A stretch of DNA of 12,248 bases, taken from a virus. Made by a program: the position numbers and the translations under genes. Below the pieces are notes generated by a model. That model saw only the letters and a program-made list of their open reading frames with translations. It did not search any database and was not told where the DNA came from. Within the stretch, counting starts at the first letter, position 1. Every line of letters starts with the position of its first letter. Where the stretch lies: the UHGV virus genome UHGV-0192790; one strand, given 5' to 3'. Below are positions 1 through 11,217 of the stretch, piece by piece.

Positions 1-20
1 CAATAAACCACAATAACCAA

Positions 21-90
21 CATTTTTGTTGTCCCATTTTTGCCCCTTTTACGGCGTTTTGCCCCATTTTTGCCACCACAAAAAATCCTA
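21..90. repeat. Phased T-tract region with a 12 bp direct repeat (CCCATTTTTGCC at 33-44 and 63-74)
   Basis: T-runs centred near 24, 39, 48, 58 and 69 (about 10 bp periodicity) followed by an A6 run at 81-86, plus the repeated 12-mer. Lies downstream of the last tail gene on the minus strand. Confidence 0.5.
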
Positions 91-238
91 AACCACACAA
101 ATCTAAAACCTACAAATTGCCCCCTTGGATACTTTTCAATAGAATCTGTTCCGGCTGGAAATCATTCAATATTCGCACTATCGAAAGTTATCCAGCCAGC
201 CGCGGTACGTTCTTGCATACGACGTGCCGCGGCTTCTG

Positions 239-802
239 TTATTCTGGTACGAAATCCCTAACCGACTTCAAATCCTCCAGACTACTCAGCTCCTCTTTCA
301 TCTCACGCTGACGACGATAAATCTCGGCGTTGCGATCGACCTGCGCCTGCGCCATCGCGGCTGCCAGTTCTTCCAGTTCCGGCATCGACAGTTTCACCTG
401 TTGATTATCAGCGTCGCCCCACGCAAGGGCGGTTCGTGCCGTATCAGATTTTGCAGCCATTACCACCGGATAAAGACGAGCCATTGAGTCGGGGCCAGCG
501 TTCCAGGTGCGACCATTCCATTCGAACGTGAACGGCAGTGCCTCCTGTTCTGTGCGCCACGCCTCGATTTCCATCTTTTTGGCATCTTTTGCCGCTGCGA
601 TAAGTTCAGGCGTGACTGTAAACGGGGCGATTTCACCCCATTTGCCACTTTGCAGTTCCTGCCAGATTTGCTGGCCCGTCGGTGCGGTATCGTCTGCTGT
701 CGCTGTATACGGCAGGGCCTCGTCCATCCCCTCAAACAATACGTCGCAGTCAATCGCGCCGCTTTCCAGCCAGCGCGCATTTTCGATTTTTTTTACTTCC
801 AT
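239..802 (-). CDS. Putative tail-fibre accessory/chaperone protein (non-canonical; function uncertain)
   Basis: 187 aa ORF starting 8 nt after the stop of the 973 aa fibre gene. ATG at 802 preceded by AGGTGA about 4 nt upstream. Lacks the C-terminal EWP motif of classical Tfa, so the call rests mainly on position. Confidence 0.4.
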   Translation of the reverse strand: MEVKKIENARWLESGAIDCDVLFEGMDEALPYTATADDTAPTGQQIWQELQSGKWGEIAPFTVTPELIAAAKDAKKMEIEAWRTEQEALPFTFEWNGRTWNAGPDSMARLYPVVMAAKSDTARTALAWGDADNQQVKLSMPELEELAAAMAQAQVDRNAEIYRRQREMKEELSSLEDLKSVRDFVPE

Positions 803-809
803 AAATCAC

Positions 810-3731
810 CTACGCAACTCGTATAAACAGACCAATCATGACGCTGGCGGAACCGGCAGACCCCAGTCCATTCCCCGACAATGCCCGGTATGTGCCTGGC
901 ATTCCGCCACCGGAACCCTGAACATACACAGAAACACTGCCGTTGTATTTAACCCCGGTCCCGGTCGTACCGTAACACATCAATTCAACCGCACTCAGAC
1001 GTGACCCAGGATAGCTGTAACCTCGCTTTATTCTGCGGTCCGGGTCTGCGTTTCCCTGGCCGTTATATGCCGCCAGTATCAGGCTGCCAGTGCCGTACCA
1101 GGTATCTGTAGTTCCGGGAGCAAGGCCGGACAGAAGAGCAATAATGTCCTGCGAGGTTACCTTCAGTGATTCCCAGTCAATGAGATAACCATTTCCTGTG
1201 GTCCAGTAGCGGTTGTAATAAATGTGGCCATTAACACCATAGAAAATAATCGCCTTTGCTGTATTTATCGGACTCGGTGTGGCATATCTGGACTCAATCC
1301 ACCGAATACTGACAATCCCGCTGAACAGCACATTGGGTATAATTTTATTGCCACCCTCAACAAAATATTCTCCTGGCGTGACCTGTTTTACCCACACCAG
1401 AAAATCATTTTCTGAGTCAAAGCGGACAGTTTCGTTTGTGTTGAATATACGCCCAAAACCGAAGGCATCGGGAAGTGCCAGCCTGCCTTCCGTCCTGTCG
1501 CGAATATCACTCTGTGGCTCCATTGTGGCCGCCGCGCCCAGCGTGATATCGCCCCCTCCGAGCACGGAATGCCCGTTGATGCGCATAAAATCACAGGCAC
1601 GAAACTGTGGGATTTTTCCCCAGGCTGTAACGGATATGGCGGCGGCAACGTCGGCCACCGTGACGGCAGATGTCGCCCGGATTTGCAGGCGTCTGATGGC
1701 AGCCGTGGCTGCCGTCTGAGAAGTGGTGACCTTTGCCACAAAAGCAAAAAAATCACTCATGGCAAACGTATCAATGCCGTCGTAATTTGCCGTGAACAGG
1801 TCCGGGTAAGCACTCTGTATGGCGTCCAGAACCTGCCTGCCGTACCGTTCCACTTCTTCCTGTGTTTCCAGCACCCCAAAGCGCCACGGGGCCACAGAAA
1901 AACGGTCCTTATCAACAAAACGCCCTTCACCAGGCTCTGCCGGGTAATCCGTCTCGTTGTAATACGTCAGGAACCGTTTTTGTTCAGGTACAAACAACGC
2001 AAGCAGGCCAGCCCTGATGGTTTTCATGGCAGCGGTATATTCAGTTGCAGCAGTGGTATCTCCGGCAAGGTCAGCCAGTGTTTTCAGTGCACGTAAACCA
2101 GCATAAACCTCTGCGTTATCCTGACAAAAACACTGTGCATAAGCCCGGTCACCGGGTGCAAGATTGTGCTGGAATACGTTTACCAGACTGGCCACCGGAT
2201 TTATTTCAGCAACGATATTGAACTTTGCCACCTGTTTTATGATTTCCCAGCGGCTGGACCCGCCGATTCCGGCTGGCTCCTGTAACCAGGCACTGTCCGC
2301 AAATTCAGCAATGCAGGCGAACCAGAGCGCCGGGTAGCTGTCCGTGGAGTCCGGCGCAACGGGGGTATACAAATCCGGAGCCACATCCAGAAAAAAATAC
2401 TGCCATGCAGCCGGGATTCGGTTTGAGGGGCTTTTCAGGCACTCCAGCACAGCGGAGCCGGTCCGGACAAAATCTCCGGGGGCTACAGAGCTGATATCAG
2501 GCAACGTTTCCCCGGTGGTGCCCGCGATATTAACAAAAAAAAGCGTGCCGTTTATTGTCAGGCGCTGCCCGGCTTCATAACGGCAACCGGTCATAAACGG
2601 AACCACAAGCCCCAGTCTTAACGCCTTTTCGCAAATTGTCATACGGTCACTGAGGGAAAAGCATTTTCCTTCGCTTTCATACACGGCAAGAAACAGAAAA
2701 TACCAGTTGATACCACCGTTCGCATTCAGGTAGCGCCACAGCCCCTCGTAGCGCCCGCTGTTTATTCTCAACGCCTGTAGCTGAAGGTTCGCCTCTGTTA
2801 CCGAATAACGGGTTGATACTGAAAGGTGGTCATGAATGAATCCCTGCACATGCCCGGCCGCGTCTTTCGCCTCCTGAGCACTTATGGCGGCCGCGGCGGC
2901 ATTCTGACCGGTTTGTTTCGCATCCTCCGCAGTGGATTCCCTGTCCGCAGCCGTTGCAACCGCATTCTTTCTGGCTTCATCAGCAAAACGCTCTGCATCA
3001 TCACGCGCCGCTGCGGTTGCCTTCACATCCTGTGCGGTCTGCTGTGCACTTCCGGCAGCATTATCAGCGCAACTTTTCGCATTCTGCTCGCTCAGGGCGG
3101 CGTTATCCGCATTGTTTTTTGATTCCTCTGCGCTGGATGCTGAGTCATCTGCTGCCTGTTGAGCCTGCTTTACTGCATCTGTAACACTCTGCACACCCTG
3201 CTGTACCTGCCCGGCGTTCTGCTCAACTTCTGAGGCCAGCTGTGCAACGCGCTGTTTATCTTCGGCAACGGCTTCTGCATTCTGCTGTACGTTATCCGCC
3301 AGCATCTGGCAATCATCCTTAATCTTCTGCGCATCAGCTGCGTGTTGCCCGGACTGTCGTTCGCTTTCCGCTGCCGCTTCCGCGCTCTGCTGCGCCTGCG
3401 CCAACATTTCTTCGAAGCGTTTCACCACGTCGGGTTTGAGGTCGCCTTCATCAAGGGCAGTCAGAAAGTCGTTCAGCGTGCCGGGCTTTGAATCGTCGTA
3501 TACGGCAATGTCGCCAACACAGTACTCGTCGCGCCAGTCCTGTTTCAGATATACGCAGTATTTTCCGGTCTGCGCCTTAAAACAGTACTCGCCACAGTTT
3601 CCTGTCACCACATCAGCAACTGTGCGCATCACCACTTCTGACGTGTTTACCCGGGATTTCAGAATTATGTGGCATCCGGACATGGGGATGCCTGCGCCAT
3701 CAATCAGCGCACCTGATATCACTACAGACAT
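810..3731 (-). CDS. Tail fibre protein with lambda Stf-like N-terminal domain, long coiled-coil stalk and large C-terminal globular region
   Basis: 973 aa ORF. N-terminus MSVVISGALIDGAGIPMSGCHIILKSR...IAVYDDSKPGTLNDFL closely parallels the lambda side-tail-fibre N-terminus (MAVKISGVLKDGTGKP...ITVYEDSQPGTLNDFL). Residues about 110-300 are Ala/Gln/Glu/Asp-rich, typical of a fibre shaft. ATG at 3731, TAG at 810-812. Confidence 0.85.
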   Translation of the reverse strand: MSVVISGALIDGAGIPMSGCHIILKSRVNTSEVVMRTVADVVTGNCGEYCFKAQTGKYCVYLKQDWRDEYCVGDIAVYDDSKPGTLNDFLTALDEGDLKPDVVKRFEEMLAQAQQSAEAAAESERQSGQHAADAQKIKDDCQMLADNVQQNAEAVAEDKQRVAQLASEVEQNAGQVQQGVQSVTDAVKQAQQAADDSASSAEESKNNADNAALSEQNAKSCADNAAGSAQQTAQDVKATAAARDDAERFADEARKNAVATAADRESTAEDAKQTGQNAAAAAISAQEAKDAAGHVQGFIHDHLSVSTRYSVTEANLQLQALRINSGRYEGLWRYLNANGGINWYFLFLAVYESEGKCFSLSDRMTICEKALRLGLVVPFMTGCRYEAGQRLTINGTLFFVNIAGTTGETLPDISSVAPGDFVRTGSAVLECLKSPSNRIPAAWQYFFLDVAPDLYTPVAPDSTDSYPALWFACIAEFADSAWLQEPAGIGGSSRWEIIKQVAKFNIVAEINPVASLVNVFQHNLAPGDRAYAQCFCQDNAEVYAGLRALKTLADLAGDTTAATEYTAAMKTIRAGLLALFVPEQKRFLTYYNETDYPAEPGEGRFVDKDRFSVAPWRFGVLETQEEVERYGRQVLDAIQSAYPDLFTANYDGIDTFAMSDFFAFVAKVTTSQTAATAAIRRLQIRATSAVTVADVAAAISVTAWGKIPQFRACDFMRINGHSVLGGGDITLGAAATMEPQSDIRDRTEGRLALPDAFGFGRIFNTNETVRFDSENDFLVWVKQVTPGEYFVEGGNKIIPNVLFSGIVSIRWIESRYATPSPINTAKAIIFYGVNGHIYYNRYWTTGNGYLIDWESLKVTSQDIIALLSGLAPGTTDTWYGTGSLILAAYNGQGNADPDRRIKRGYSYPGSRLSAVELMCYGTTGTGVKYNGSVSVYVQGSGGGMPGTYRALSGNGLGSAGSASVMIGLFIRVA

Positions 3732-3754
3732 AGTTTTTCTCGCAATAAATTAAA

Positions 3755-4285
3755 TCAGGAAGAGGCTTCCGGAGAGACGGGCCATTCAATGGCGTTATAT
3801 GAGCTTTTATCAGCGATGGTGCTGAAATCCATCGCCTGCAGCGATTTCGCGTAAATGCGCCAGGCTGTCAGCTTTTCTTTTTCTTCATCACTGATGATTC
3901 CCAGAAGTAAATCCGTCTTCTTATCGGATATTTCCCGTTCGGCAATCGCAGTAAGACGTGCACGCTCCGACTCTGCCTGCTGCCGGTAGTCAACAGGGAC
4001 CGGCAGCACTTCACCGTCTTTATAATACCAGCGGGCTTCAATGCAAAATCCTTCCGGTAGTTCATCCACTTCCACAATGGTAAAACCAACGGGATAAAGA
4101 CGGGATGCATCTTCCGCCATGGAATAAATAACGCCGGTTTCAGGATGCGTGCACAGCTTGTATTTCTTCGTGAATTTATCCAGTGATTCATAAAAATCCT
4201 GCCCGTCTTCACTACGGAAATACTGAATGCCTTCACCATAAGGCATATCTTCAGGGTAGTAACGCGTAACGTTTACGAGTTCCAT
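3755..4285 (-). CDS. Tail fibre assembly protein (Tfa / P2 gpG / Mu U family)
   Basis: C-terminus ...YNAIEWPVSPE and internal ...EDGQDFYE..., ...DASRLYPVGFTIVEV..., ...RQQAESERARL... match the Tfa family pattern. The ATG at 4285 has a strong SD (AAGGAG, 6 nt spacer). The track ORF extends to 4321 but that extension overlaps the upstream gene and has no RBS. Stop TGA at 3755-3757. Confidence 0.85.
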   Translation of the reverse strand: MELVNVTRYYPEDMPYGEGIQYFRSEDGQDFYESLDKFTKKYKLCTHPETGVIYSMAEDASRLYPVGFTIVEVDELPEGFCIEARWYYKDGEVLPVPVDYRQQAESERARLTAIAEREISDKKTDLLLGIISDEEKEKLTAWRIYAKSLQAMDFSTIADKSSYNAIEWPVSPEASS

Positions 4286-4299
4286 TATTTTCTCCTTAA

Positions 4300-5682
4300 T
4301 TAACCTGATACGGATCGCCATGCACCATTAATATAAATCTGAGCCTGTTTGTAATACACGCCACCGATATTATCTGCAGAGTTACTGCCAGTGTCCTGAA
4401 CATTAATGCCTGACAAAACACAACCAGAAGGTGCCCGAAACGTCCAGCTGCGCTCATTCCCACCAGGGTTGTAAAACACCTCACTGGTGTACTGAAAATT
4501 CTGCACGCCCCCTGATTTGGTCTGGTAACGGGCATCAAAGTTTCCGTAGTCTGACGGTGTTACCCGCCCGGTAACGTTTACAGGTTTATTACTCTGGATA
4601 CTGCCAGCCTGAAAACGCAACACATGCACGCTATTGGCATAAACATCCAGCAGGCCATCACCATTCTGTTTCAGGCCGGTATCGTTATCCCCGAAAGCAA
4701 TTGAGTTTCCACCCAGCGCGTTCTGAACGCCGATACCCAGCGCACCATTGACCTGAGAACCGCCGCCAACAGACACTTTATGCGACATGGATATTTCACC
4801 CGTCCGCAGGTTAATAGTGAACGGACGAAGTGGACCAATATCGCCATTCTCGCCCTGACCTTCACTGGTAGGAATAAGGTGCAGGCACTCTTCCGAACGA
4901 CGAAAAATCAGACCAAAGGCTTCGTTGAAAATCCTCAGCGCATTAACTCCACGGATTTTCAGCCCCCCGGTCATCAAATCACCAGATTTTTTTACATATC
5001 GCAGATCAAAATCTGAATAGATATTGCCAGGGTTTATCACGCTGAAATAGCTTTTCTCGCTATCAAGAAGGCAAATCAAAGGAATACCCTTAATGATATC
5101 ATTCGCCACCAGCTCGGACTTGTTCCCCTTATAAAGTGGAAACGTACCAAGAACCTTTCCGCCCAGTGTCAATTGAAGCGTTGCGGCGTTGGTATTGTTC
5201 TGAACGGGGAAAACGATAATCGGGGTTCGTAGCGTCCAGTCCGAACCTCCATTAACAAAAAACGTCGCGGGAAGTTCCAGCGTCAGCGCGTTTGCAGTGC
5301 CACCAGCAACACCCGCAATATAATGACCGCTCTGAAGCTGCGCTATCTGTACGAAATAGTTTTCCGATCCACGCGTGGCAAAGTTAGCCACAACGTCATT
5401 AAGGGACCAACCTTTCGCGGTTGTTCCTTCCTGCCCACGAATGACTCTCAACACATCACCGCTTACCGATACCAGGTGACAAATCTCAAATGCAGACTCT
5501 TTATTATCGGTAAGCGTAATTTTTGCATAGACGCGTTGCCCGTTTGATTTATTTTCAAAATCAGCAGAAAGCAATTTTGCAAATTTAGCCCCTGTACCGG
5601 GCATTACCGGAATATCAGTCTGAATCGTGGTGATATCACCAGCCAGTGCTGAAACAACGTTATTGCCGAATCCAAGAATCAT
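4300..5682 (-). CDS. Tail fibre protein with P2 gpH / Mu S-type C-terminal receptor-binding region
   Basis: 460 aa. The segment NALGGNSIAFGDNDTGLKQNGDGLLDVYANS matches the conserved C-terminal region of P2 gpH-type fibres (as I recall it). Also contains an FDLRYVKKSGDLMTGGL motif typical of fibre proteins. Start ATG at 5682 overlaps the upstream stop as ATGA. Immediately followed by Tfa. Confidence 0.75.
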   Translation of the reverse strand: MILGFGNNVVSALAGDITTIQTDIPVMPGTGAKFAKLLSADFENKSNGQRVYAKITLTDNKESAFEICHLVSVSGDVLRVIRGQEGTTAKGWSLNDVVANFATRGSENYFVQIAQLQSGHYIAGVAGGTANALTLELPATFFVNGGSDWTLRTPIIVFPVQNNTNAATLQLTLGGKVLGTFPLYKGNKSELVANDIIKGIPLICLLDSEKSYFSVINPGNIYSDFDLRYVKKSGDLMTGGLKIRGVNALRIFNEAFGLIFRRSEECLHLIPTSEGQGENGDIGPLRPFTINLRTGEISMSHKVSVGGGSQVNGALGIGVQNALGGNSIAFGDNDTGLKQNGDGLLDVYANSVHVLRFQAGSIQSNKPVNVTGRVTPSDYGNFDARYQTKSGGVQNFQYTSEVFYNPGGNERSWTFRAPSGCVLSGINVQDTGSNSADNIGGVYYKQAQIYINGAWRSVSG

Positions 5683-6305
5683 TTTTGAATCACCGTTGTT
5701 GCATAGGAATAAATAAAAGGGAGTTTTACATACTTCTGGTCAATGGCATCTTTCAGAAAATAGCCTATACCATCACCATATTCTGGTATCTGAATAGAAA
5801 AAACACTGTCCGATACAGTCACGCTCACATCAAAAGTATGCTGCAACGGCGGGTCTATTCCGTTTTTCCCATGAATGAACCGCGCCACACGGCGCTTTAA
5901 CCAGTCAATGCAGAAATGCGAACCGTCAGCCTTATAAAAATTCCACGTTAATATTCGTTTGAAATAATCATCAGGGACATACGATGCCTGCCCCGGAACG
6001 TAATTCCGCATTGCTGCGTACGGGATCGTATTGTATTCAATGGTATCGTATGCACCGCGCGCAATAGCCTCCTCTGAAACCTGTAGTAAAGGTCTTTCAA
6101 CACCGTAAATACCAAGTGCTATCCAGTCCAGCAACTGCCCGGTTATTGATTCCGATGTCCAGCATGGCAATGCCAGATTGTTGAGTGAATCGAGGTATTC
6201 CTGAGCAATTTCATTGTATGCATCAAAGAACGCAACAACATTCGGATCATCTCTGTACTGCACAAACGGATAAGCAGGAAGTATTTTCTCAGTCAGATAT
6301 TGCAT
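5679..6305 (-). CDS. Putative baseplate wedge / tail-fibre connector protein (gpI/gp48-like by position)
   Basis: ORF between the J-like gene and the first fibre gene; stop TGA overlaps the fibre start (ATGA). The track start at 6362 would overlap the J-like gene by 74 nt and gives an odd N-terminus (MAIPIPIFRRWHHRFRSIS), so I prefer the in-frame ATG at 6305 (MQYLTEKILPAYPF...). Neither start has a strong SD. Family call is positional only. Confidence 0.4.
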   Translation of the reverse strand: MQYLTEKILPAYPFVQYRDDPNVVAFFDAYNEIAQEYLDSLNNLALPCWTSESITGQLLDWIALGIYGVERPLLQVSEEAIARGAYDTIEYNTIPYAAMRNYVPGQASYVPDDYFKRILTWNFYKADGSHFCIDWLKRRVARFIHGKNGIDPPLQHTFDVSVTVSDSVFSIQIPEYGDGIGYFLKDAIDQKYVKLPFIYSYATTVIQK

Positions 6306-7515
6306 ACTTATTGACCTGAACCTGTGATGCCACCGTCGAAAAATAGGAATAGGTATCGCCATAAACTAGGCTTGTGTCTTTTGCCGGAAGAACAATATGA
6401 CCGTTAATACCAATGCTCACACTGATTGTTGAGATCAACGTCGCATCAACCAGCAATTTTACGGAGCTGGTAAAAATATCCTGGATTCGCAGCAGATTTA
6501 TCGGGTGTCCGACTTCAATAGAATTGATGTAATCAGCAACGTTTTGCTGCACAGCCATAGCAATACCCGCCGGATCAACATAATCATCAGATACAGTGTT
6601 CCAGGTGATTAGCACCATGACGTTTTGTGATGACGGGATAACGAACGGCACCTGATAAACATCTGGCGAAACGGTTATTGAAACCGTGCGTTTTTCCACT
6701 GCCGCACCAGATGGATTGCTAACATCGTTGGTCAGTTTCGAAATATCCGGTACAGATTTGTAAATAGCATAAGCCACATCATACGGATCACCGCCACCAA
6801 CAACCGCAACCCATTTCCCCAGCGACGACTGCCGGAAAGAAATCAGGTTTTCTCGCACACCGCTTACTGATTTGAGCATCGCTTTAAAGCAATCCGGTGT
6901 TCCCTGCACACCAAACATGCCGGACTCCATGACTTCGGCGCGGTAAGATGCCCACGTTTGCGCCTCCTGACCTGGCATCCCTGCGGTAAGGTTCGTGCAT
7001 TTTACAGGCTGATCTTTGGGTACCGATGTAATGACCTGCGTTACGGTTCCTTCCGGTACAGCCCATGAGCCTGACGTTGTGGCCACACAGTAGACTGGCT
7101 CAGTCTGCCCGCTTTCCGGCACCACCGTATCGCGGGAAACTGCATACTGGTAGTTGCCGTCACCGACAACAAATCCTTTAGGGATACCAAACCCCGGCAA
7201 CGCCTCAAACACCACGTATACCGCCGTATTTGTACTTAATCCCTTCTGTGCTCCATAAATGTTTCCGAGTTGCATCAGTAACGGAATATTTGCGCCGTAT
7301 GGGCTTACGGAGTTAATAAGGTCCACCCGCGCCTGGTCTATTAATGCCAGCGCCCCGACTGCCGTGCTGGCAAGGTCAGTAATAAGCCCCGCCGGAAGGT
7401 TGGCTGTATATCCAGGTACTTTTTCAGCAACTCTGATGATAAGATTTGCAAGCAAATCATTGGGTGGCGTAGGCTGCGCCCCCGCACTGGTCATAGTAAT
7501 TGGTATTTCTGACAT
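6289..7515 (-). CDS. Baseplate J-like protein (P2 gpJ / Mu gp47 / T4 gp6 family), tentative
   Basis: 408 aa. Position upstream of the gpI-position and fibre genes. Internal pattern ...YCVATTSGSWAVPEGTVTQVITSVP... resembles the baseplate J family signature. ATG at 7515 preceded by GGAG with a 5 nt spacer. Confidence 0.5.
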   Translation of the reverse strand: MSEIPITMTSAGAQPTPPNDLLANLIIRVAEKVPGYTANLPAGLITDLASTAVGALALIDQARVDLINSVSPYGANIPLLMQLGNIYGAQKGLSTNTAVYVVFEALPGFGIPKGFVVGDGNYQYAVSRDTVVPESGQTEPVYCVATTSGSWAVPEGTVTQVITSVPKDQPVKCTNLTAGMPGQEAQTWASYRAEVMESGMFGVQGTPDCFKAMLKSVSGVRENLISFRQSSLGKWVAVVGGGDPYDVAYAIYKSVPDISKLTNDVSNPSGAAVEKRTVSITVSPDVYQVPFVIPSSQNVMVLITWNTVSDDYVDPAGIAMAVQQNVADYINSIEVGHPINLLRIQDIFTSSVKLLVDATLISTISVSIGINGHIVLPAKDTSLVYGDTYSYFSTVASQVQVNKYAISD

Positions 7516-7527
7516 ATTTACTCCATT

Positions 7528-7553
7528 AAAAAACCCGCTTTCGCGGGTTTTTT
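7528..7553 (-). terminator. Rho-independent (bidirectional) terminator downstream of the inserted nuclease gene
   Basis: AAAAAACCCGC-TTTC-GCGGGTTTTTT: GC stem 7534-7538 / 7543-7547 with a 4 nt loop, flanked by an A6 run (7528-7533) and a T6 run (7548-7553). It reads as hairpin plus U-run on both strands. Lies 2 nt after the TAA stop (7556-7558) of the inserted gene and directly abuts the RBS of the J-like gene. Confidence 0.8.
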
Positions 7554-7555
7554 AC

Positions 7556-8716
7556 TTATTCAACCTCTTCTAAACTGCTCGCTCTGGACCCTCGGCGGAA
7601 ATTATCATCATTTTTAACATACTCGTATGAATCCAGAATCAAACCAGATATGCGAAGTATATCTTCCGGATTAGTTATATGTATCCTTTTACCATCCGTA
7701 TCAAGTCGAGCTCGTCTTATTTCATTCAACTGAACTTCACTAAGCGAAATAGGTAAAGTTATAAATGAAGATTTTTTATCATAAAATCTTAACAGCCATC
7801 TATTAGTTTTACCATTCAATAGTATACCAAAATATGACTCAGTATCTTTATATTCTATATTATCTTCTGTTTGTATGATTTGTTTTACCCTTTCAAATAG
7901 CTCCAATTCTTTGGCTGTGGTTATTATGTTGGGGTTTTCTTCATCAACAATGGCGTTATTAACTTGTGTATCCGTTGCATCATTTTCTTTAGTTTGCTCT
8001 ACCGGTTGTGTAGATAGCCCGGAAACCACCATTGCGCTAACAGCGCGCTCAACGGCCTGTTTAACTAATGGAGTCACGAACTCAAGAAATCTCTGATTAA
8101 GTTGTCTCTCAATATTTGAACGACTAGCAACATATCGAACAAACTCCAGATCAACTTCACGAAGACTAGAACTGATTGTTTTAGTAAATGAATTCAAATA
8201 AACACTTTCTTCAGCCAGTGTCCGTAAAGCCTCTGGTTTGAATTTATCATAACGAAAACGAAATAATTGTGTAATATCGGAGTGAGTTAGAGAATCCATT
8301 CTTATTTTTAAAAACGGCGTTGAAGCCATTATGTTTTTTTGTTTCAAATCCGTAAAAAAACGCCATTCAACACCATTTGTAATGGCTGATATAGTAACTT
8401 CCGGTGTTGAATTAAAATATCTTGATAGCTGTGGGCAGTGATTATCAATTTGTTCTGAAAACGATTTCGCCTCAATGAACATCACAGGAACATCATGACA
8501 AAATAAAGCGTAATCAACCCGTTCATTAGCCTTAACCCCGGGGAAGTCAGCACTATACTCAGCTTTGACTTTTCTTGGATCATACGGAGTAAAACCAAGA
8601 ATATCTAGTAATGGCATAATGAGTGCTTGTTTTGTCGTTTCTTCAGTTGTACAAAACACCCCCATTTTTGCAACATGCTCTGTGTGTATTTTTAACTTAT
8701 TTGCAAAATTTTCCAT
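7556..8716 (-). CDS. PD-(D/E)xK nuclease-family protein with HsdR-N-like N-terminal domain plus unknown C-terminal domain; candidate moron (defence or homing-type endonuclease)
   Basis: AT-rich ORF. N-terminal region ...QALIMPLLDILGF...ERVDYALFCHDVPVMFIEAKSF...CPQLSRYF...ISAITNGVEWRFF carries the hallmark D / E-x-K / Q...Y / TNG..W motifs of the type I restriction enzyme HsdR N-terminal nuclease fold. Preferred start is the ATG at 8716, preceded by GGAGG with an 8 nt spacer. The track start at 8731 has no SD and adds only MEETS. Stop TAA at 7556-7558. Confidence 0.7.
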   Translation of the reverse strand: MENFANKLKIHTEHVAKMGVFCTTEETTKQALIMPLLDILGFTPYDPRKVKAEYSADFPGVKANERVDYALFCHDVPVMFIEAKSFSEQIDNHCPQLSRYFNSTPEVTISAITNGVEWRFFTDLKQKNIMASTPFLKIRMDSLTHSDITQLFRFRYDKFKPEALRTLAEESVYLNSFTKTISSSLREVDLEFVRYVASRSNIERQLNQRFLEFVTPLVKQAVERAVSAMVVSGLSTQPVEQTKENDATDTQVNNAIVDEENPNIITTAKELELFERVKQIIQTEDNIEYKDTESYFGILLNGKTNRWLLRFYDKKSSFITLPISLSEVQLNEIRRARLDTDGKRIHITNPEDILRISGLILDSYEYVKNDDNFRRGSRASSLEEVE

Positions 8717-8744
8717 GCTTGTCTCCTCCATGGTAACAATATGT

Positions 8745-8774
8745 ATTTTGCAAATCCGAAATAATATATGTCAA
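8745..8774 (-). promoter_or_regulatory. Putative sigma70-type promoter for the inserted nuclease gene
   Basis: Perfect -35 hexamer TTGACA (minus strand, 8774-8769), then an 18 nt AT-rich spacer, then CAAAAT (8750-8745; 4/6 match to TATAAT). Sits about 30-60 nt upstream of the SD-preceded ATG at 8716. The -10 assignment is ambiguous. Confidence 0.4.
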
Positions 8775-8844
8775 TATGCTCCAGCTTAGAAAATTACTCG
8801 CCCCCCCTAAAATATCTCTCTACAGCACTCCAAACCAAGGTAAA

Positions 8845-8861
8845 AGTTTTATCATAAAACT
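8845..8861. promoter_or_regulatory. 17 bp perfect palindrome AGTTTTAT-C-ATAAAACT (candidate operator/protein-binding site)
   Basis: 8 bp arms are exact reverse complements around a single central base. Located between the stop of the 115 aa gene (8867-8869) and the promoter-like region of the inserted gene. Confidence 0.35.
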
Positions 8862-8866
8862 GTGAT

Positions 8867-9214
8867 TCATACCGGCACCTGCGTCCGGTAACTGGTCCCA
8901 TTAAAAAACACAACATCGATGTTATAGGTGGGGTTATCTGCTCCATCTACCTTTGAAATTGCCAGTGATGCAAAATACCCAGCAAACTGTTGCTGAACCA
9001 TGTTCACATAGTAGTCTGGGTAAATCTGCTGCACGATGCACTGCTGTGCAGGAATACCGTAATTCGCGTAAAACGGCGACTCCCCCAATCCCAGCTTTAA
9101 CGTCTGAATGAGCGTCGTCAGCCAGCCATAGGAGAAATCACCGTTGGCGTCAGATTCTACTGCAACCCATTTTTTGTTGCCGTTCGCGTCGGTGACGCGG
9201 CCCCATGTTCTCAT
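8867..9214 (-). CDS. Hypothetical protein; possibly baseplate wedge (gpW/gp25-like) by position and weak motif resemblance
   Basis: 115 aa (the same length as P2 gpW). Segment LIQTLKLGLGESPFYANYG loosely resembles the gp25/gpW G-x-R-x-x-x-x-x-F/Y-G region, but the EPR motif is not evident. ATG at 9214 overlaps the upstream stop (ATGA); GGGGG 5 nt upstream. Confidence 0.35.
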   Translation of the reverse strand: MRTWGRVTDANGNKKWVAVESDANGDFSYGWLTTLIQTLKLGLGESPFYANYGIPAQQCIVQQIYPDYYVNMVQQQFAGYFASLAISKVDGADNPTYNIDVVFFNGTSYRTQVPV

Positions 9215-9399
9215 CGTGCCCCCATCACTTTAACTAACTCTGTCAGTACTGGTGAAAAGGCAAATGCTAAAGCTACGAGTGCAGCGGTGTAATACATGCG
9301 TCGTAAGGTATTGCTTTTTGCCACTAATTTTAAGGCTTTCACAATCCAGTCTCCTCCGCTAAAATTAATCACGGAAGGCTTCCAAACATACGTAATCAT
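9211..9399 (-). CDS. Small predicted membrane protein (one C-terminal hydrophobic helix), function unknown
   Basis: The track ORF starts at a TTG (9414); the first ATG is at 9399. Hydrophobic stretch MYYTAALVALAFAFSPVLTELV. Stop overlaps the next start as ATGA, suggesting translational coupling. No convincing SD, so whether it is a real gene is uncertain. Confidence 0.3.
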   Translation of the reverse strand: MITYVWKPSVINFSGGDWIVKALKLVAKSNTLRRMYYTAALVALAFAFSPVLTELVKVMGAR

Positions 9400-9430
9400 C
9401 CCTTGCGTATTCAAGGTGAGAAACAGAAAA

Positions 9431-9458
9431 CCCCGACTGGGCCAACAGTCGGGGTTTT
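9431..9458 (-). terminator. Rho-independent terminator-like hairpin (bidirectional) after the spike gene
   Basis: CCCCGACTG-GGCCAA-CAGTCGGGG: 9 bp GC-rich stem (9431-9439 / 9446-9454) with a 6 nt loop, preceded by AAAA and followed by TTTT (9455-9458). On the minus-strand transcript the hairpin is followed by UUUUCUGUUU. Confidence 0.65.
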
Positions 9459-9496
9459 CGTTTTATGGTTAGAATTTAAAGTGAAATGAACCGGTA

Positions 9497-10210
9497 TTAA
9501 CCAGGATTTGGTTTCTTCGTCGTAATCGTGCTGCTGCCGCTTTGAACACCAGTCACATCGTGGCTGTGGCCGCTGACGCTCACGCCGTTGATAACTGCAT
9601 CCATCTCGACATTAAGAGGACCAATCAGCGAAGCGGTTGTATCCTTCATCTGGGCTTTGTCCTGGACGATCGGTCCGTTGAGGTGAATTTTCCCGTTCAG
9701 GAAAATATCTTCGGCCTCGAGGTAAACAGCTTTCGACTTTTGCCTGATTTCTTCCAGAGCCACCATTACCGAGCTACTGCCGTCCTCTGTTTTGAGGATC
9801 GCGCCATCCGGACCGTACAAAACGATTTTTTGCGGATCTTCGTCGGACCACTCCTTGTTTGCCAGTGGCACGAAAAACAGGGGAGTGAGCGACATCGAGT
9901 AAGAAAGCGTTGCCATACCGGTTCCCAATCCGGACACACCGCGCAGTGATACATCAGCGGCAATTGTTACTCCTCGATCGCCCGGCTGTATCGGGTAACG
10001 GATATACGGGAATGTGGCGACAGGGATTGTTATCTGCGGGAAGTTGATCCCCTCCGGCAGCATATCAAACTGAACTGTCACTATTTGCCCGCAGATATCG
10101 ACAACATGGCAGGGCAATTCGCGGCCTTTAAGCTCGGCTTGCTGGTTACCAGAACTGGTCATCATCTCTGACAGCGTTCGGAGAAACGGTATTTTTTGAG
10201 CGTTTGACAT
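9497..10210 (-). CDS. Baseplate central spike protein (P2 gpV-like), tentative
   Basis: 237 aa. C-terminal ...SGHSHDVTGVQSGSSTITT... resembles the H-x-H plus Gly/Ser-rich apex of gpV-type spikes. N-terminal ...LPCHVVDICGQIVTVQFD...PIQPGDRGVTIAADVSL is beta-rich and OB-like. Start ATG overlaps the upstream stop (TAATG); GAGGGTG SD about 5 nt upstream. Confidence 0.5.
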   Translation of the reverse strand: MSNAQKIPFLRTLSEMMTSSGNQQAELKGRELPCHVVDICGQIVTVQFDMLPEGINFPQITIPVATFPYIRYPIQPGDRGVTIAADVSLRGVSGLGTGMATLSYSMSLTPLFFVPLANKEWSDEDPQKIVLYGPDGAILKTEDGSSSVMVALEEIRQKSKAVYLEAEDIFLNGKIHLNGPIVQDKAQMKDTTASLIGPLNVEMDAVINGVSVSGHSHDVTGVQSGSSTITTKKPNPG

Positions 10211-11217
10211 TACACCCTCGCCCAGTTCTCAACATATGCCTCGAATACCGTCACCCAGGCATCGCCATCGGCTGTCAGATACGAACCAATGTGTCTGACC
10301 GATTTCACAAGAAATTTCCCGGTGAACGTGGTCGAATTTTTTGCGATAACGCTGGGTGCCGTTGTATTAGCCATCACAATCGACGCTGCGCCAGAATATA
10401 GCCCCTCCGGGAGTTTAACCACATCACCACATCTGATATCGCCCCTCATAGGGCATTTGAAGCTGACGGTAAACGGCGCTATCCATGTCGGCTGCCCGAC
10501 CAGTTCATGGGCATGAATTGTTTTTGGCTCACCCCACTTTGCCGATGTGTTATCGTAGATTCGTATTCTGTCGGAAAGAATGCTGATGGCGATTCCGCTA
10601 TACCTTTCATTACGCATCATCGCAATAGAGGCGTTTTTTACGACCATAGCCAGAGAACCAATCTCCGTATATTTGCCTGTCCACGGCTCTGGCAAAACAA
10701 GGTTGTCGCTGACTGTGCAATCAATCAATTTATTGGGATATGCTTTTTGCAAAGCGCGGACTAAAACATCGCCCACCCTTTCGCCTGCTTCCCCCAGCCC
10801 CTCAATTGAAAAAGGTTTACCGTCATCGGTTTTGCGTATGCCTGGATTTATTACCAGGTTTAAAGTCTGGTTCGTGCCGATCCAGTTGGCATAGGCCAGA
10901 TAAATTTCACCATAGATTACCTCCCCTTGTTGATCCTTATTTGCCAGTGGTAACCCCTGAACAAAGCCTGCTTTCATACGGACCAGACACCCCTGCAAGC
11001 TTACGCTTTGCTTCAGCATATCAATTGGTAATCCATAGATCGTCAGCATCGTGCCCGAACAGACTACATCCAGGCCGGTTACTTCAAAGTCAAATTCAAC
11101 ATGCAACCCACATCCTGGTGTTTCACTGGTATCAAAAGGTCCAATGGATTTTCCATTGCTATCCACTGGCGGCTTGCCTGTTTTAGGATTAATAATTTCC
11201 AGTCGGTAATAACGCAT
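10210..11217 (-). CDS. Tail/baseplate module protein, family unassigned (possibly hub-like by position)
   Basis: 335 aa ORF, translationally coupled on both sides (TAATG overlaps). GAGGT SD 8 nt upstream of ATG 11217. No motif I can confidently assign. Confidence 0.35.
   Translation of the reverse strand: MRYYRLEIINPKTGKPPVDSNGKSIGPFDTSETPGCGLHVEFDFEVTGLDVVCSGTMLTIYGLPIDMLKQSVSLQGCLVRMKAGFVQGLPLANKDQQGEVIYGEIYLAYANWIGTNQTLNLVINPGIRKTDDGKPFSIEGLGEAGERVGDVLVRALQKAYPNKLIDCTVSDNLVLPEPWTGKYTEIGSLAMVVKNASIAMMRNERYSGIAISILSDRIRIYDNTSAKWGEPKTIHAHELVGQPTWIAPFTVSFKCPMRGDIRCGDVVKLPEGLYSGAASIVMANTTAPSVIAKNSTTFTGKFLVKSVRHIGSYLTADGDAWVTVFEAYVENWARV

Follow-up and report, generated by a model that had tools for sequence, protein, structure and literature searches.

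The stretch of DNA analysed here, 12,248 nt in full and referred to below as the window, falls among the Rac-SA53-like lambdoid prophages of E. coli, and all of its long open reading frames lie on the minus strand. Read along that strand, it carries a baseplate hub-like gene (10210-11217), a gene with weak likeness to the P2 V baseplate gene (9497-10210), a 115-aa gene of the tail/baseplate cluster (8867-9214; rac59-like, phrog_7986, placed by PHROGs and by relatives), a variable segment of 1351 nt (7516-8866), a 408-aa baseplate J/gp47-like gene, hereafter J (6289-7515), and fibre genes past J. The hub-like, V-like and fibre genes were assigned by Pfam and PHROGs; J was assigned by Pfam (Baseplate_J, 7e-8), by PHROGs (phrog_6, baseplate wedge subunit) and by RefSeq annotation in relatives. 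The variable segment holds a gene for a 386-aa standalone nuclease-domain protein (7556-8716), and the gap between this gene and J is exactly the 40 nt of 7516-7555.

Matches to the query were found in 100 of 5426 complete E. coli genomes, 25 of the 100 having the same cargo. The window is 97.4% identical to, and over 7.7 kb colinear with, a prophage of strain OkiPb01675 (NZ_AP042478; locus L065), and is 92–94% identical to Rac-SA53. A search of genome contigs with the J protein returned only one distant locus. The distal tail-fibre region (window 1-4531) is mosaic, being not colinear with the NZ_AP042478 prophage and matching it only in short patches of 83–92% identity. The baseplate region (65% of the query) of the E. 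coli prophage family is also 94.7% identical to Actinobacillus phage vB_Apl-pPE4 (PP818812.1), a host assignment that is unexpected for an E. coli Rac-SA53-like phage.

On the minus strand the end of the nuclease gene, GAA TAA (7558-7556), is followed by GU, by A6-CCCGC-GAAA-GCGGG-U6 (7553-7528, with the GC core at 7534-7547), by AAU, by the Shine–Dalgarno sequence GGAG of J (7524-7521), and by UAAAU and the AUG of J (7515). The hairpin begins 2 nt past the TAA of the nuclease gene, that is, at the 3′ end of the predicted transcription unit, and the U6 tract follows the stem immediately. Three nucleotides separate the end of the T-run from the GGAG, which itself lies 5 nt before the ATG, and 12 nt separate it from the ATG. 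The initial annotation had placed a hairpin with T6/A6 runs at 7528-7553, about 12 nt before the start of J, and both its coordinates and its distances proved correct.

The 26-mer is predicted to fold on the minus strand with a ΔG of −15.3 kcal/mol (z −3.97; 0/200 shuffles equally stable), the 5-bp all-GC core contributing −9.1 kcal/mol when folded by itself. When 101 nt of context were folded, the hairpin was the main element, and both the Shine–Dalgarno sequence and the ATG of J were left unpaired. The A6/T6 symmetry means that the site also reads as a terminator on the plus strand, where the fold has −14.4 kcal/mol and the loop is UUUC; it is the late-gene strand that has the hyperstable GNRA loop, GAAA. 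In a custom scan of both strands of the 12.2-kb window (perfect core of ≥5 bp including ≥4 GC pairs, loop of 3–8, ≥5 T in the six positions directly after), 7528-7553 was the sole match, with 0.18 expected; its strict form, with five of five GC pairs and T6, was found in 1/300 dinucleotide-preserving shuffles. A generic terminator scan of the window did not list 7528-7553, probably because it counted the A-U pairs into the stem and was left with no T tail. A d'Aubenton-Carafa-type score for the site was +26.

By its sequence, then, 7528-7553 is a canonical Rho-independent terminator. It shares with the canonical bidirectional terminators of E. coli a GC stem, a stable tetraloop, a 3′ U6, a 5′ A-tract and a position directly after a stop codon, and differs from them in the shortness of its G-C stem (5 bp), in the 40-nt gap in which it sits and in abutting the Shine–Dalgarno sequence of the next gene. 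That the terminator is a strong one, as the initial annotation called it, we infer from its sequence. With the stop codon only 2 nt from the A-tract and a stem of just five G-C pairs, a ribosome stopping at the end of the nuclease gene could lower the efficiency of termination. Rfam gave no match at its gathering threshold. The sub-threshold matches (rsmX, STnc370, the Trp and Leu leaders, isrK) all come from models that end in a terminator, and the rsmX match, which scores 29 bits where gathering requires 56, is on the plus strand and ends on the hairpin. Identity as an sRNA or a leader was rejected, since the matches fall far below gathering and the models are merely terminator-ended.

The segment between the 115-aa gene and J was compared across 60 loci (55 IMG/VR contigs together with GenBank/RefSeq records) and the window. 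Its length ranges from 587 to 3135 nt and its content falls into 15 sequence classes, with further configurations seen in E. coli chromosomes; the cargo includes Ant antirepressors, small secreted proteins, LprI-like proteins and the nuclease. Across 7500-8850 of the window the GC content is 0.31–0.40, as against 0.45–0.56 in the flanks. Homology between classes restarts exactly at the ATG of J, which places the Shine–Dalgarno sequence of J in the variable, cargo-side segment; classes with cargo on the opposite strand carry CCTTGAGATTAACT at the Shine–Dalgarno position. In distant relatives, whose J proteins are 34–47% identical, the open reading frame at the place of the 115-aa gene either runs 4 or 1 nt into J or stops 10 nt short of its start. 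Homologues of the 115-aa protein were confirmed in two of the three distant relatives (L062 and L064, 46–50% identity), and the third (L063) has an open reading frame in the same position. The slot therefore interrupts a gene pair that is ancestrally tight. The low GC, the alternative cargos and the closeness of the flanking genes in distant relatives all favour the earlier view of the segment as an insert. It thus shows two of the properties by which morons are defined (PMC3594210), namely variable presence at a position, here in 15 classes and with near-contiguous flanks in distant relatives, and deviant base composition.

Between the V-like and 115-aa genes is another variable slot (window 9215-9496; 4269-5106 in locus L075; 3523-4625 in L077). 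It contains one to several small hydrophobic open reading frames, in the window one of 67 aa at 9211-9414. Some relatives have a co-directional Rha gene there, which ends in GGGGGGC-GUUU-GCCCCC and AGUC-UUUUU, followed by the GGAG of the 115-aa gene. Some 37 nt past the stop codon of the V-like gene, at 9426-9459, both strands of the window can form a perfect 14-bp hairpin (ΔG −24 to −27) followed by UUUUCUGUUUC. Relatives retain a hairpin at this position with an altered stem (in L077, CCCCGGTCTG...CAGCCGGGG), so that it looks like a conserved terminator-like element within the baseplate cluster. A sub-threshold Rfam match to sar RNA (21.8 bits against 43), at 9425-9479, overlaps this hairpin. 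A piece of about 64 nt (window about 9314-9392) has counterparts of 86–91% identity in other E. coli chromosomes, where they lie at different places in unannotated DNA; it could be a short repeated or mobile sequence or else the remnant of a prophage.

The cargo gene of the window encodes an HsdR-N-terminal, PD-(D/E)xK nuclease domain (Pfam HSDR_N, 5.7e-14; phrog_4225, endonuclease, 1e-147). The longest open reading frame begins at 8731; the ATG that is conserved in homologues and used by RefSeq is at 8716 and is preceded by GGAGGAG. There are 1373 homologues of about 385 aa, named as type I restriction endonucleases or HsdR N-terminal domain proteins, and searches of NCBIfam and of PDB sequences found nothing beyond the HsdR-N domain. 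An AF2 model built from the single sequence was useless (pLDDT 31.6), and one based on a multiple alignment was of moderate quality (69.7). Foldseek of the nuclease model against the PDB gave no match at ≤1e-3; weak likenesses, which were not significant, were to the HsdR nuclease domain and to a C-terminal domain of the YdhG/DUF1801 type. No family of PADLOC-DB 2.0.0 matched the protein at E ≤0.01, which makes the nuclease family a candidate for an undescribed prophage defence or exclusion gene; for the protein of the window, a defence or exclusion role is plausible.

Homologues of 65–87% amino acid identity occur in unrelated prophages. Those in Citrobacter lambdoid prophages (L069-L071, 4001-5152) lie directly 3′ of a cI-like HTH+S24 repressor gene and are co-oriented with it, and those in Mu-like Salmonella prophages (L072-L074, 4001-5167) likewise lie directly 3′ of, and co-oriented with, a Mu-like repressor gene. 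In another lambdoid prophage (L066, 3959-5116) the homologue adjoins Q on the opposite strand, and a further homologue is in a Salmonella prophage (L067). The position after cI is that of rexAB in lambda, and the placement of homologues behind repressor genes fits expression of the nuclease in the lysogen.

Upstream of the cargo gene, at 8774-8745, is a σ70-like promoter candidate, TTGACA-18 nt-CAAAAT. It has the joint top score, 10/12, among the promoter-like hits of the window and the only perfect −35, though the window as a whole has 18 such hits where shuffles predict 16.9, which is not above chance. We aligned the upstream regions from three unrelated contexts, the slot of the window, the prophage with the homologue beside Q (L066) and the Salmonella prophage (L067). 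Blocks of TTGAC and AAAAT occur at matching positions upstream of the homologues in both of the other prophages, in surrounding sequence that has diverged. It therefore seems that promoter and nuclease gene travel together, and the promoter that the initial annotation had assigned to the insert gains support from the recurrence of its hexamers in two further contexts, even if the window-wide count of such sites is at the level of chance.

The terminator does not travel in this way. The 3′ flanks of the homologues in L066, L067, L069-L071 and L072-L074 are unrelated to that of the window, and the idea that the terminator is a passenger of the nuclease gene was rejected on this ground. Within the nuclease class itself the hairpin is unchanged in 24 of 24 same-cargo sequences, an invariance that is uninformative because the class is about 98% identical and only 30 of 1352 columns vary. 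Over the last ~55 nt before J, the nuclease class aligns with the class that carries an LprI-like gene, with a score reached by none of 1000 mononucleotide shuffles, a significance that the A/T runs inflate. Between the two junctions an extra C:G pair is compensated, and the loop on the late strand is GAAA in one and UUCG in the other, both of them hyperstable tetraloops. A compensated change in the stem, together with alternative extra-stable loops, indicates selection on the hairpin. By sequence comparison, the terminator and the Shine–Dalgarno sequence are a junction module of the slot, common to the co-directional LprI-like cargo, and the nuclease gene, while ending in a terminator as a moron is expected to, shares that module with cargo of the LprI type.

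The same arrangement recurs with unrelated sequences. All four co-directional cargo units in the slot, namely the nuclease, the LprI-like gene (in several variants), a pair of 190 and 138 aa and a 129-aa open reading frame, end in a hairpin and T-run within a few nucleotides of the stop codon, as does the co-directional Rha gene in the neighbouring slot. In classes in which the J-adjacent cargo is on the opposite strand, no terminator was found at the J border; there the cargo gene starts 14–37 nt from the ATG of J, the distance being mostly about 20 nt. A promoter for it would thus need to lie inside the conserved 5′ coding region of J, where, for such cargo (e.g. 2816-3060 in L001, Rac-SA53), a consensus scan found none. 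The orientation pattern, terminators behind co-directional cargo and none beside opposite-strand cargo, speaks for the late genes being insulated from cargo promoters, although the independent cargo classes are few. It agrees with the earlier proposal that the insert is insulated from the late genes.

These comparisons also bear on whether the palindrome terminates transcription at all. It might instead have little or no terminator function and be a recombination scar, a site that stabilizes or processes RNA 3′ ends, or an antisense terminator for the plus strand. The symmetry of the site, which is terminator-like on both strands, would suit such roles, as would the plus-strand rsmX match that ends on it, and a junction module shared by two cargo classes marks a point at which cassettes are joined. 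Several observations speak against this. No promoter-like site was found on the plus strand between 5324 and 7834, and a plus-strand transcription unit ending at the hairpin was rejected for want of one upstream; the Rfam matches are far under their gathering scores and derive from terminator-ended models. In both classes it is the late strand that has the GAAA or UUCG tetraloop, with the stem difference compensated, and the other co-directional units bear unrelated hairpins and T-runs at the equivalent position. A function other than termination on the late strand therefore appears very unlikely.

For J to be expressed past a hairpin that ends transcription, the initial annotation had offered three routes: read-through, antitermination, or a promoter within the 3′ end of the insert. 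The gene for Q lies outside the window and is seen in relatives. It is annotated in Rac-SA53, where all genes from Q to the fibres are co-oriented, and the nearest same-cargo prophage, that of NZ_AP042478, has a homologue that matches DUF1133 (PF06576) at 2e-106 and PF06530, the Q21 family (PMC9388147), at 28.6 bits against a cutoff of 26. Just 3′ of this gene is, at the sequence level, a PR′-tR′-like cassette, with TTGATA-18-TATATT at 9825-9854 of locus L065 and a hairpin with U7 at 9949-9971, about 95 nt apart. The relatives thus have the elements of a Q-antiterminated operon in order, with Q upstream and a PR′-like promoter followed by a tR′-like terminator. They resemble the lambdoid Q-PR′-tR′ cassette in having a gene in the position of Q, a promoter-like site, a terminator and a long co-oriented late region. 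They differ from it in that the protein is mainly of the DUF1133 family and only weakly of PF06530, and in the location of the cassette outside the window; a QBE or pause element was not identified in the relatives' cassette.

RNA polymerase loaded with Q reads processively through terminators over tens of kb (PMC9388147). On the late strand of the same-cargo prophage, about seven further sites from the Q gene to the terminator before J have terminator-like hairpins, so that Q-dependent read-through would explain the expression of J, too. An IS21-family element (ISSso4) occupies 11644-13951 of L065, between the Q/tRNA region and the lysis genes; the NZ_AP042478 prophage may for this reason be defective, with its late operon possibly broken.

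On the embedded-promoter route, J and the fibre genes would have a promoter of their own, situated in the junction or the 3′-terminal part of the insert, and the terminator would end all upstream transcription, lysogenic and lytic alike. The 3′ half of the insert is AT-rich (GC about 0.31–0.36), and weak or activator-dependent promoters would evade a consensus scan. Nevertheless, a scan for σ70-like sites (at least 9/12) found none on the late strand from 8246 to 4397, and just 12 nt lie between the U-run and the ATG. Moreover, the sequence upstream of J is wholly different in other cargo classes, and is often the 5′ end of a divergent gene, so that a promoter for J would have had to be invented anew in each class. 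We regard a dedicated promoter at this place as highly improbable. Antitermination is the best-supported route for J, given Q and the PR′-tR′-like cassette in relatives and the lack of a promoter-like site in the 3′ part of the insert; of the three routes first offered it is the one with support, an embedded promoter being improbable.

A further possibility is that Q-modified polymerase sometimes stops at the hairpin, which would then act as a partial attenuator, lowering the dose of J and the fibre genes relative to the upstream tail genes, with insulation a secondary effect. The ‘ant moron’ of P22-like phages, situated just 5′ of the tailspike gene, is considered to affect how frequently late transcription gets as far as that gene (PMC2629481), and the slot occupies an analogous boundary, ahead of J and the fibre genes, where ant is often present; the second conserved hairpin, after the V-like baseplate gene, could be read in the same sense. 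By position, the ant moron appears to be the closest parallel to the slot that we have found. Both are a single hypervariable site in a conserved morphogenetic operon, ahead of the host-recognition genes, and both often hold antirepressor and superinfection-exclusion-type genes, with a possible effect on downstream read-through (PMC2629481). They differ in tail type and in their flanking genes, which are unrelated; the window has a nuclease in place of ant, and control of the Mnt/Arc/sar type is not evident there, the only sar match being the sub-threshold one mentioned above. Against attenuation stand the prophages with opposite-strand cargo, which have no terminator before J and in which dose control at this point cannot therefore be a conserved requirement. 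Q-loaded complexes are, furthermore, described as essentially termination-proof at standard hairpin and U-tract terminators (PMC9388147). Attenuation as the main role of the site thus seems unlikely to us.

The reading that we consider probable is that the terminator closes an autonomous moron unit, inserted in a hotspot that splits a pair of baseplate genes, and that Q takes transcription through it after induction. The unit would consist of the promoter near 8774-8745, the nuclease gene (8716-7556) and the hairpin with its U-run (7553-7528). Host RNA polymerase that initiates at the cargo promoter in the lysogen would make nuclease mRNA and halt at the hairpin, and J and the tail-fibre genes would stay silent because cargo transcription stops there. 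After induction, polymerase modified by Q at PR′, some 28 kb upstream, would pass this hairpin and the other late terminators and transcribe J, which, to judge from the architecture and the known mechanism of Q, would be translated from the GGAG just past the U-run. Overall, what the initial annotation observed is confirmed and its interpretation is supported, with its statements about function read, like ours, from sequence.

As a kind of element, the unit is an ordinary moron design. Lambdoid phages have morons of this type, for instance gene 15 in the tail operon of HK97: extra genes among the late genes, of deviant GC and ending in a terminator, with a promoter of their own, for which the window has the candidate at 8774-8745. 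They are presumed to be expressed from the repressed prophage and to be read through in Q-driven late transcription (PMC3594210); we presume the same of the unit in the window. Three things set it apart from the HK97-type morons: it is flanked by the 115-aa gene and by J, in a lambdoid genome with a myovirus-type tail; its cargo is an HsdR-N nuclease; and its terminator and Shine–Dalgarno sequence are common to another type of cargo and not the private part of its gene.

Among lambdoid morons are also bor and lom of lambda. A terminator-closed moron in a Q-antiterminated late operon has belonged to textbook phage biology since the comparisons of HK97 with HK022, and the element itself matters little. 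Mildly new are the hotspot, the shared junction of terminator and Shine–Dalgarno sequence with its compensated stem, the orientation pattern and the uncharacterized nuclease. For annotation, the terminator is a useful landmark: the cargo hotspot that it delimits, flanked by J and the 115-aa gene, occurs in a prophage family that is common in E. coli and that in Rac-SA53 carries LT-II toxin genes. At the same time it draws attention to a widespread standalone HsdR-N nuclease, a candidate for a defence gene expressed in the lysogen. It also suggests a small, testable rule of orientation, which concerns how cargo is kept compatible with essential late genes.

More tentatively, and with rather more doubt than confidence, the terminator and Shine–Dalgarno stretch can be seen as a reusable adaptor of about 40 nt, made up of hairpin, U-run and GGAG, which would accompany any cargo in the late orientation, insulating the essential downstream genes in the lysogen and replacing the lost close linkage between the 115-aa gene and J, while opposite-strand cargo comes with a terminator-free allele of the junction; the nuclease, which has a rexAB-like position in other prophages and no match in PADLOC, would then be an undescribed defence gene expressed in the lysogen. 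If this is true, the slot would illustrate an orientation-dependent design rule for cargo hotspots in prophages.
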